From Thalassotalea sp. (GTDB lineage: Bacteria; Pseudomonadota; Gammaproteobacteria; Enterobacterales; Alteromonadaceae): DNA of 64,000 nucleotides. The position numbers were made by a program, and so were the translations under genes. Every line of letters begins with the position of its first letter. Within the stretch, counting starts at the first letter, position 1. The notes beneath the pieces were generated by a model. The model did no database searches. It had not been told where the DNA came from and saw only the letters and a list, made by a program, of their open reading frames with translations. Shown here one piece after another: positions 61,541-62,147 of this stretch. The DNA lies in NCBI GenBank assembly GCA_022448425.1, contig JAKVCY010000187.1:127-64126 (forward strand), given 5' to 3'.

Positions 61541-61652
61541 TAACTTTTACACGTCTTAATATCACTATATTGGGGCAGAGCAGCTAGTACCTTTGTTTAA
61601 TCACTGTCACTGTTCTAATCTAAATAGTCTCATTCCCCAATAAATTTTAGGC

Positions 61653-61680
61653 AAAAAAAAGCCCGCTTAGTGAAGCGGGC
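61653..61680 (-). terminator. Orphan minus-strand terminator
   Basis: 8-bp perfect stem followed by 8 U on minus; could also end ruvB read-through in the other direction. Confidence 0.8.
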
Positions 61681-61815
61681 CAACTTAATAAAGTTGATAG
61701 AAGGAAGTTAATAGTTCCAGGAAACATGTCAGAGAGAAGAGACAGTATCAATACTACCTATTCTTCAAGAAATCTGGGCGTGTGAGACTTTCTCACTGCG
61801 CTAGCTCAGAAAACA
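61653..61815 (-). ncRNA. Candidate small regulatory RNA (about 160 nt)
   Basis: Minus-strand TTGTTG-N17-TAGAAT (61849-61821), internal hairpin, CU-rich core, terminator GCCCGCTT-cact-AAGCGGGC-T8. Confidence 0.55.
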
Positions 61816-62147
61816 AGAGTATTCTAAACAAGTCTTACCACCCCAACAAACTAATTAAATTTTATTTTCGCATTAGAAAAATTAATGCAATAATTATTTC
61901 GTGGTATTGCCTCAATGTCTCTAATGAATAGATATATAGGGATGTTGGTAATAAAGTGAATAATTATTTATATATTTTGCATGCTGGTTGGATGTTAAAA
62001 AATATAACTAAAAAGTTAATATGAAACCGTAGAGAAATTAATTTACAAATATTCACTAATTTAATTGTATACAAGCCTTGTTAGCACAGGCGTTAATTAT
62101 TAATATGGTCCCCATAATAAGAGTAATTTGAATTCACAGTCTTCCCT

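Follow-up and report, generated by a model that had tools for sequence, protein, structure and literature searches.

A conserved small RNA gene with a GcvA-type promoter box between ruvB and ybgC of Thalassotalea, a candidate counterpart of GcvB in its family

GcvB is treated as a conserved small RNA (sRNA) that can be followed through its R1 seed and its position beside gcvA, and its GU-rich R1 is among the best-conserved of sRNA seeds. OxyS, another sRNA, responds to peroxide and is encoded divergently from oxyR, the gene of its regulator. GcvB is under the control of GcvA and glycine and carries the seed regions R1 to R3, of which R1 and R3 define its function in Escherichia coli (PMC9299463). 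The published GcvA site reads ATTAG-n5-CTAAT; in E. coli gcvB, the site IR1 is centred at -65 (PMC5002191; also PMC3658693) and a weaker site, IR2, lies beside the -35 box (PMC5002191). In the open literature, we found no description of GcvB or of the locus reported here for Colwellia, Alteromonadales or Pseudoalteromonas, and the locus goes unmentioned in the papers on sRNAs of Shewanella and Pseudoalteromonas.

The window analysed here is a stretch of 64,000 nucleotides from Thalassotalea sp. (assembly GCA_022448425.1, contig JAKVCY010000187.1). An initial annotation of it had proposed a complete sRNA gene on the minus strand between ruvB and ybgC, and all the positions and features it gave for that gene are present on that strand. 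The locus, in window positions, is composed as follows.

Flanking genes, all on the plus strand: aspS, ruvC, ruvA and ruvB upstream; ybgC, tolQ, tolR and tolA downstream.
61872..61886, minus strand: putative GcvA-type LysR box IR1, ATTAa-N5-CTAAT, beginning at -72 and centred at -65 from the predicted start.
61871-61887, minus strand: palindrome GCATTA-N7-TAATGC, which spans IR1.
61850..61864, minus strand: promoter-proximal site that would correspond to E. coli IR2, assigned by position only, with a conserved ATTAG half-site (61855-61851) beside the -35 element.
61844..61849, minus strand: -35 element TTGTTG, of which TTG is kept; relatives have TTGTCA or TTGCCA.
61821..61826, minus strand: -10 element TAGAAT, kept as TAnAAT, after a 17-nt spacer.
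61653..61814, minus strand: predicted sRNA transcript of ~162 nt, from G61814 (7 nt past the -10 element) to the end of the U8 tail.
61773..61810, minus strand: stem-loop SL1, a basal stem CUG(A)GCU/AGC(C)CAG around the hairpin GUGAGA-aag-UCUCAC.
61795-61781, minus strand: the inner hairpin of SL1, in DNA letters GTGAGA-aag-TCTCAC.
61732..61766, minus strand: stem-loop SL2, differing in sequence and length among genera, its 3' arm entering the CU-rich stretch.
61730..61741, minus strand: CU-rich stretch CUCUUCUCUCUG, a candidate anti-Shine-Dalgarno (anti-SD) seed.
61715..61729, minus strand: ACAUGUUUCCUGGAA, complementary to an SD-plus-AUG context, a candidate seed at the place of the R1 region of GcvB.
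61728-61718, minus strand: CAUGUUUCCUG.
61692..61709, minus strand: AACUUCCUUCUAUCAACU, which contains UUCCUUCUAUCAACU; its ACUUCCU is common to GcvB region R2.
61708-61699, minus strand: ACUUCCUUCU.
61681..61696, minus strand: small hairpin CAACUU-uauu-AAGUUG, directly before the terminator.
61653..61680, minus strand: intrinsic terminator, GCCCGCUU-cacu-AAGCGGGC and U8, a 3' module typical of Hfq binding.

The terminator stem (GGCCCGCTTCACTAAGCGGGC) with its U8 is the sole terminator-like site returned by the terminator scan between 61400 and 62300, and it lies on the minus strand. In a fold of the window locus, the core holding CUCUUCUCUCUG, ACAUGUUUCCUGGAA and AACUUCCUUCUAUCAACU is mostly unpaired. 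An own promoter, no ORF, an unpaired conserved seed and a 3' hairpin with a U-tail are the general marks of Hfq-class sRNAs, and all of them can be read in this locus. The -35/-10 pair was not listed by the promoter scan, TTGTTG falling below the match rule of the scan, and promoter-like sites were equally frequent in shuffled and in real sequence; transcription and its exact 5' end at G61814 are predictions. Taken alone, the single-sequence fold is only mildly better than that of shuffled sequences (z = -2.2), so that the significance of the element rests on its conservation.

When the whole gap was compared with the genomes of relatives by BLAST, only the block 61642-61887 aligned. This block was matched in each of the seven further species of the genus and in numerous other family genera, and BLAST detected the element in 17 of the 24 family genomes sampled. 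In every case, the block lies upstream of ybgC and on the strand opposite to it; ruvB is usually its other neighbour, and where ruvB is elsewhere the block still accompanies ybgC. A covariance model (model R1) built from an alignment of 37 species (A1), which gives the window locus 140.6 bits, retrieved a single copy in 112 out of 151 genomes and in 48 out of 59 genera of the GTDB family, Colwellia and Thalassotalea included; these counts are samples under strict filters, in which an element not found is not the same as an element absent. The conservation in the ruvB-ybgC gap of relatives by which the initial annotation had proposed to judge the gene is thus observed. Weaker copies with the same box were present in two more families of the order (f6 and f18), and the 20 weak-scoring loci of the family that were fetched all had the same architecture, nearly all of them adjoining ybgC. 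With one genome scanned per species, the invariant 3' motif was found in exact form in 52 species records, nearly all from Colwelliaceae, which were labelled Colwellia, Cognaticolwellia, Thalassotalea, Thalassomonas and Litorilituus, plus one labelled Endozoicomonas.

The promoter box, the -35 and -10 elements, the 5' stem, the core and the terminator are conserved in register over the 48 genera, with covariation. On A1, the four specified helices were paired in 88% of the cells, against 26-48% when the partners were slid by 1-3 columns; 12 pairs were altered on both sides, and none of 500 shuffles reached the observed covariation score. Helices 1 and 2 have four both-side-changed pairs each, and the terminator has four compensatory pairs and 97% of its cells paired. 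Among independently folded homologues, 21 have C:G and 12 have U:A as the basal pair of SL1, while the six pairs of the small hairpin are invariant or G-U, this hairpin reading CAAC-acuu-GUUG in other genera. Among the stretches of the core, the CU-rich one is conserved across Colwelliaceae as UCUyUUCUCUCUG, ACAUGUUUCCUGGAA is the most widely conserved of the family (other genera read AUGUUCCCUGGA) and UUCCUUCUAUCAACU is invariant in the 37 aligned species.

These data bear on two readings in which there would be no sRNA at all. In the first, the hairpin would be nothing other than the terminator of ruvB, an outcome that the initial annotation had named as fatal to its proposal, and the promoter hexamers would be chance matches in AT-rich DNA. 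This is the sole hairpin downstream of ruvB, and the promoter scan does yield as many sites in shuffled sequence. However, the U-tract lies on the minus strand only, so the hairpin is not simply a ruvB terminator; moreover, the block keeps with ybgC where ruvB is elsewhere, and conservation in register over 48 genera together with covariation contradicts this reading, which we regard as very improbable. In the second, the locus would encode a small protein, either from a minus-strand ORF starting MFPG or from a plus-strand ORF of 19 codons with an SD. The 34-aa minus-strand frame (61751-61647) does have an in-frame ATG at 61727-61725, and CCAGGAAACATG precedes the 19-codon frame on the plus strand. 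Nevertheless, several species have ATA in place of the minus-strand ATG, which has no SD, the frame from it traverses the terminator, the plus-strand frame crosses the variable SL2, and indels disrupt both frames between genera, which leaves a small protein as the least probable of all the readings weighed here, next to negligible. The statement of the initial annotation that the gene contains no real ORF thus holds.

Given its covarying stems, the ATA found at the ORF start of several species and the indels that interrupt the frame, the element is a structured non-coding RNA. Judged by sequence, the ruvB-ybgC gap holds a real, conserved and so far unannotated sRNA gene on the minus strand, and the proposal of a complete gene, with promoter, hairpins and U8 terminator and without a conserved ORF, is borne out by its conservation and covariation. 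On the opposite strand, window positions 61716-61785 present a near-ideal ribosome-binding site (RBS), CCAGGAAACATG, followed by the non-conserved 19-codon frame MSERRDSINTTYSSRNLGV; the plus strand reads in this way because the core of the sRNA is an anti-SD/AUG sequence.

The palindrome upstream of the promoter reads CATTAG-N5-CTAATG in relatives, with TTTTT or AAAAA as spacer and a second ATTAG abutting the -35 element; the box of the window has one mismatch (ATTAa). The box was found in 42 out of 45 non-identical loci, perfect in 36, at a fixed distance to the conserved 5' motif, and the alignments show tttATTAGTTTG conserved at the promoter-proximal site. With G61814 as +1, the box and promoter have the same geometry as in the annotated E. 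coli gcvB: the first position of the box is -72 and its centre -65, and in both genes the -35 element starts at -35 and the -10 element at -12. The correspondence extends to the first transcribed bases (ACUUCCUGAGCC for E. coli gcvB versus GUUUUCUGAGCU in the window), and the 5' end, nnUUnCUGAGC, is at the distance from the -10 element seen in E. coli gcvB. The locus therefore has, as far as its sequence tells, the arrangement of a GcvA-dependent gcvB promoter, with ATTAG-n5-CTAAT sites near -65 and -43, the proximal site being the weaker one, an ATTAG half-site adjoining the -35 element. By this likeness, the upstream palindrome is a GcvA-type LysR box. The initial annotation had considered it a possible operator; a regulatory site it appears to be, but, as a GcvA-type box placed as in E. 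coli gcvB, it would be the site of an activator rather than the operator of a repressor.

Each of the other seven species of the genus encodes GcvA itself, as do the further members of the family that were tested; the protein is 67-69% identical to E. coli GcvA and has a near-identical helix-turn-helix. In closed genomes of the genus, gcvA is located > 1 Mb from the sRNA gene, and in relatives the same box is found upstream of gcvA. Neither gcvA nor gcvTHP was found in the assembly of the window (216 contigs, 93% complete). From the nearest relative, both are expected 2-3 kb past the ends of contigs C216 (start) and C21 (end), and they are probably missing through an assembly gap and not through gene loss. 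In the relatives examined, no GcvA-type box was found upstream of gcvT, which points to a regulator other than GcvA for the glycine cleavage operon of the family. About 100-130 nt upstream of gcvT, these relatives have a conserved GTTGTTGAATCAAC palindrome and a TTTTTGTAAATC motif (loci L190-L193).

The sRNA could be real and its box nonetheless bound by another LysR-type regulator, or the gene could be unresponsive to glycine. The assembly of the window, in which gcvA was not found, encodes several GcvA-family paralogues (the best 42% identical), and the missing box at gcvT of relatives would fit such a reading as well. However, gcvA is expected just past a contig end and is present in every other species of the genus (7/7), the DNA-reading helix of GcvA is almost unchanged from E. 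coli, and the same box occurs in the gcvA promoter region of relatives, as autoregulation predicts. We consider a different regulator improbable, and control by GcvA remains the preferred reading.

Boxes of this type also precede other genes in relatives. At five gcvA loci (L053-L057, in genomes G004, G007, G006, G014 and G021), a divergent promoter of the same geometry occupies the place where enterics have gcvB, its -35 hexamer beginning 37 nt past the start of the box and being separated by a 17-nt spacer from TAGAAT. This promoter precedes a conserved, structured leader of ~150 nt, whose stems covary around the loop UUCCCAACCC and which matches no Rfam family; a secreted protein of ~95 aa (MKTTLLALITGALAF...) comes after the leader. 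A third perfect CATTAG-N5-CTAATG box, with similar spacing, is found at L203 (G004:C1 ~834,356) and L204 (G006:C1 ~3,562,570), where it precedes an orthologous small membrane protein of ~85 aa (MN..FFDA.SWIGLA...). Given the boxes before the genes of these ~95-aa and ~85-aa proteins, the GcvA regulon of the genus seems to consist of small genes.

We compared the RNA with canonical GcvB (RF00022). The RF00022 model aligns over its full length to the window locus at 20.7 bits, below the Rfam gathering threshold of 42 bits, and no genome out of the 151 of the family contains a match above this cut-off. Neither the window region nor any of 20 homologous loci gave an Rfam match that reached its gathering score. 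The initial annotation had not recognized the RNA. A better RF00022 match elsewhere in the assembly (C177, 30 bits) was rejected, being the 3' end of a dsbC-like gene with its terminator, and no other convincing GcvB was found in the genome. By contrast, canonical GcvB was detected in seven other families of the order (151-genome order sample), so that in the sampled genomes the new RNA and canonical GcvB are complementary by family. All 19 canonical loci checked are divergent from gcvA, unlike the gene of the window, which lies between ruvB and ybgC.

Similarity within the RNA is limited. The core of the GU-rich R1 seed, GAUGUUGUGUUUGCA, is contained in every canonical GcvB inspected and absent from all the homologues that were read; the place of the R1 region is taken by the core ACAUGUUCCCUGGA, and the part shared with the R1 seed is only AUGUU...UG.A within ACAUGUUYCCUGGA. 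Region R3 is absent. For R2, ACUUCCUUCU in Colwelliaceae and UUUCCUUC in other genera compare with ACUUCCUGU in GcvB, a short CU-rich motif that could agree by chance; it lies at the equivalent place, before the 3' hairpins. The 3' half of the RNA resembles that of the canonical GcvB of one family. In three genomes of genus g96, the best RF00022 match genome-wide (29-31 bits) is this sRNA, and, reciprocally, 12 out of 22 weak matches of our covariance model fall on canonical gcvB, with E-values of 0.15-6 and possibly driven by the terminator. Because GcvB-type R1 and R3 are lacking and the similarity is weak, we do not assign the RNA to RF00022. A separate sRNA-like element in family f18 (L050, genome G041) has a partly GU-rich stretch, CCUGUUGUGUUACUGUUCCUGUGUA, and a terminator and scores 38 bits with RF00022; it has neither a GcvA box nor an adjacent gcvA, while other genomes of f18 contain the box-driven variant.

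Taken together, we think it probable that the gene encodes an sRNA with a sigma-70 promoter activated by GcvA at the -65 box, and that this sRNA is the counterpart of GcvB in the family, probably as a strongly diverged ortholog. Its support at the level of sequence comes from the anatomy of the gene, its conservation and covariation, the geometry of the GcvA-type box and a distribution complementary to that of canonical GcvB. On orthology as such, the chances appear evenly balanced. In the main competing reading, GcvB was lost and an sRNA without kinship to it came under GcvA and took over its function, the likeness of the promoters arising from the requirements common to GcvA promoters of class-II type. 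The absence of R1 and R3 sequence, a locus different from that of gcvB and a sequence and covariance-model similarity under significance would all be accounted for in this way, and in relatives the box and its spacing recur at two other promoters, which drive protein genes, so GcvA promoters of such geometry are not unique to gcvB. However, a family-level distribution complementary to that of canonical GcvB, a CUGAGC 5' motif positioned as in E. coli, an ACUUCCU resembling R2 and the rank of this RNA as the best RF00022 match in genus g96 speak against an analogue. We thus consider an analogue unlikely, although clearly less so than a different regulator.

In the preferred reading of a diverged ortholog, the gene was probably relocated from gcvA to the region upstream of ybgC-tol-pal, retaining its promoter, the 5' stem and the R2-like ACUUCCU, while the GU-rich R1 seed was exchanged for CU-rich and anti-SD/AUG sequences. 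More tentatively, and at somewhat under an even chance, a GcvB lineage spanning the whole family of marine Alteromonadaceae sensu GTDB and at least two neighbouring families may have kept its GcvA-controlled promoter, moved to ybgC-tol-pal and swapped R1 for the CU-rich and anti-SD/AUG seeds. This history would then represent a natural rewiring of a regulon whose input stayed unchanged.

As a working model of a GcvB counterpart, plentiful glycine or amino acids would lead GcvA to switch on the sRNA from the -65 box. The unpaired core (CUCUUCUCUCUG, ACAUGUUUCCUGGAA and ACUUCCUUCUAUC) would then pair, aided by Hfq, with the SD and start-codon regions of target mRNAs, and this pairing would block their translation. 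Occlusion of the RBS is the most likely action, since the conserved stretches are complementary to purine-rich SD sequences and to an SD-AUG context (CCAGGAAACAUGU). An hfq gene is present in the genome of the window and, together with the terminator with its U8 tail and the anti-SD/AUG seeds, makes an Hfq-type translational repressor a reasonable inference.

Energy-based searches for targets covered 4187 self-called start regions of one genome, the assembly of the window (G000). Co-folding of the whole sRNA with these start regions gave the same distribution as a core-reversed control, and by duplex energy the core did not surpass its reversed version or windows inside coding sequences. Seed matches of at least 9 nt were enriched 2.7-fold at start regions (93 versus 34), which is only as expected, as any anti-SD/AUG sequence would give it. 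In a search for perfect 12-mer complements in 26 genomes, TGATAGAAGGAA and CCAGGRAACATG matched nothing but the sRNA gene itself, apart from a few scattered exceptions. The start regions of three Na+/alanine-glycine symporter genes had no notable match. Within a beta-oxidation-type cluster on contig C166 (36-47 kb), which includes genes for an acyl-CoA dehydrogenase, MaoC, an SDR, a thiolase and an acyl-CoA ligase, matches to the sRNA seeds occur at several start regions. The top candidate, the thiolase of this cluster, was rejected, as its collinear three-seed match was found only in G000 and its nearest relative.

These results suggest that abundant marine heterotrophs, among them Colwellia, Thalassotalea and many other genera, have an unannotated RNA that shares the regulator of GcvB and differs from it in its seeds and its address. 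Annotation based on Rfam misses this RNA, which no Rfam family covers. If the proposed reading is confirmed, the RNA would offer a tractable system for the change of an sRNA target set under a fixed input and a way into the glycine and amino-acid signalling of cold-adapted marine bacteria, and the covariance model would serve to annotate the gene in no fewer than 48 of the 59 genera sampled. Were the RNA to be only an analogue, it would still represent a new family of conserved sRNAs whose regulator is defined.

Among described systems, the toxic sRNA of Betaproteobacteria (RF02278) and anti-hemB (RF02837) resemble the new RNA in having unpaired, pyrimidine-rich stretches complementary to the RBS and, after these, a strong terminator. 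Their models match the locus weakly (25.9 and 21.6 bits, respectively), over UGUUUCCU and the terminator. Membership in either family was rejected, as these scores are far under cut-offs of ~50 bits, the features are generic and both the taxa and the promoter control differ. The arrangement is also of the OxyS type, as an sRNA promoter has a LysR T-N11-A box upstream of its -35 element (background and PMC5002191), but here the gene of the presumed regulator is unlinked and the box is of the GcvA and not of the OxyR type.

GcvB, whose canonical form is hosted by Enterobacteriaceae, Vibrionaceae and Pasteurellaceae, is the closest of the known systems. Both RNAs are single-copy and 100-235 nt long. 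They share the GcvA box ATTAG-N5-CTAAT centred at -65 with identical positions of the -35 and -10 elements, a 5' CUGAGC that closes the first stem-loop, and a small hairpin ahead of a terminator that ends in a long run of U, with an ACUUCCU before these that may correspond to R2. The new RNA differs from GcvB in that CU-rich and ACAUGUUYCCUGGA stretches replace R1 and R3 and in that its gene is divergent from ybgC-tolQRA and not from gcvA; in the sampled genomes, it occurs only in those families where canonical GcvB was not found.
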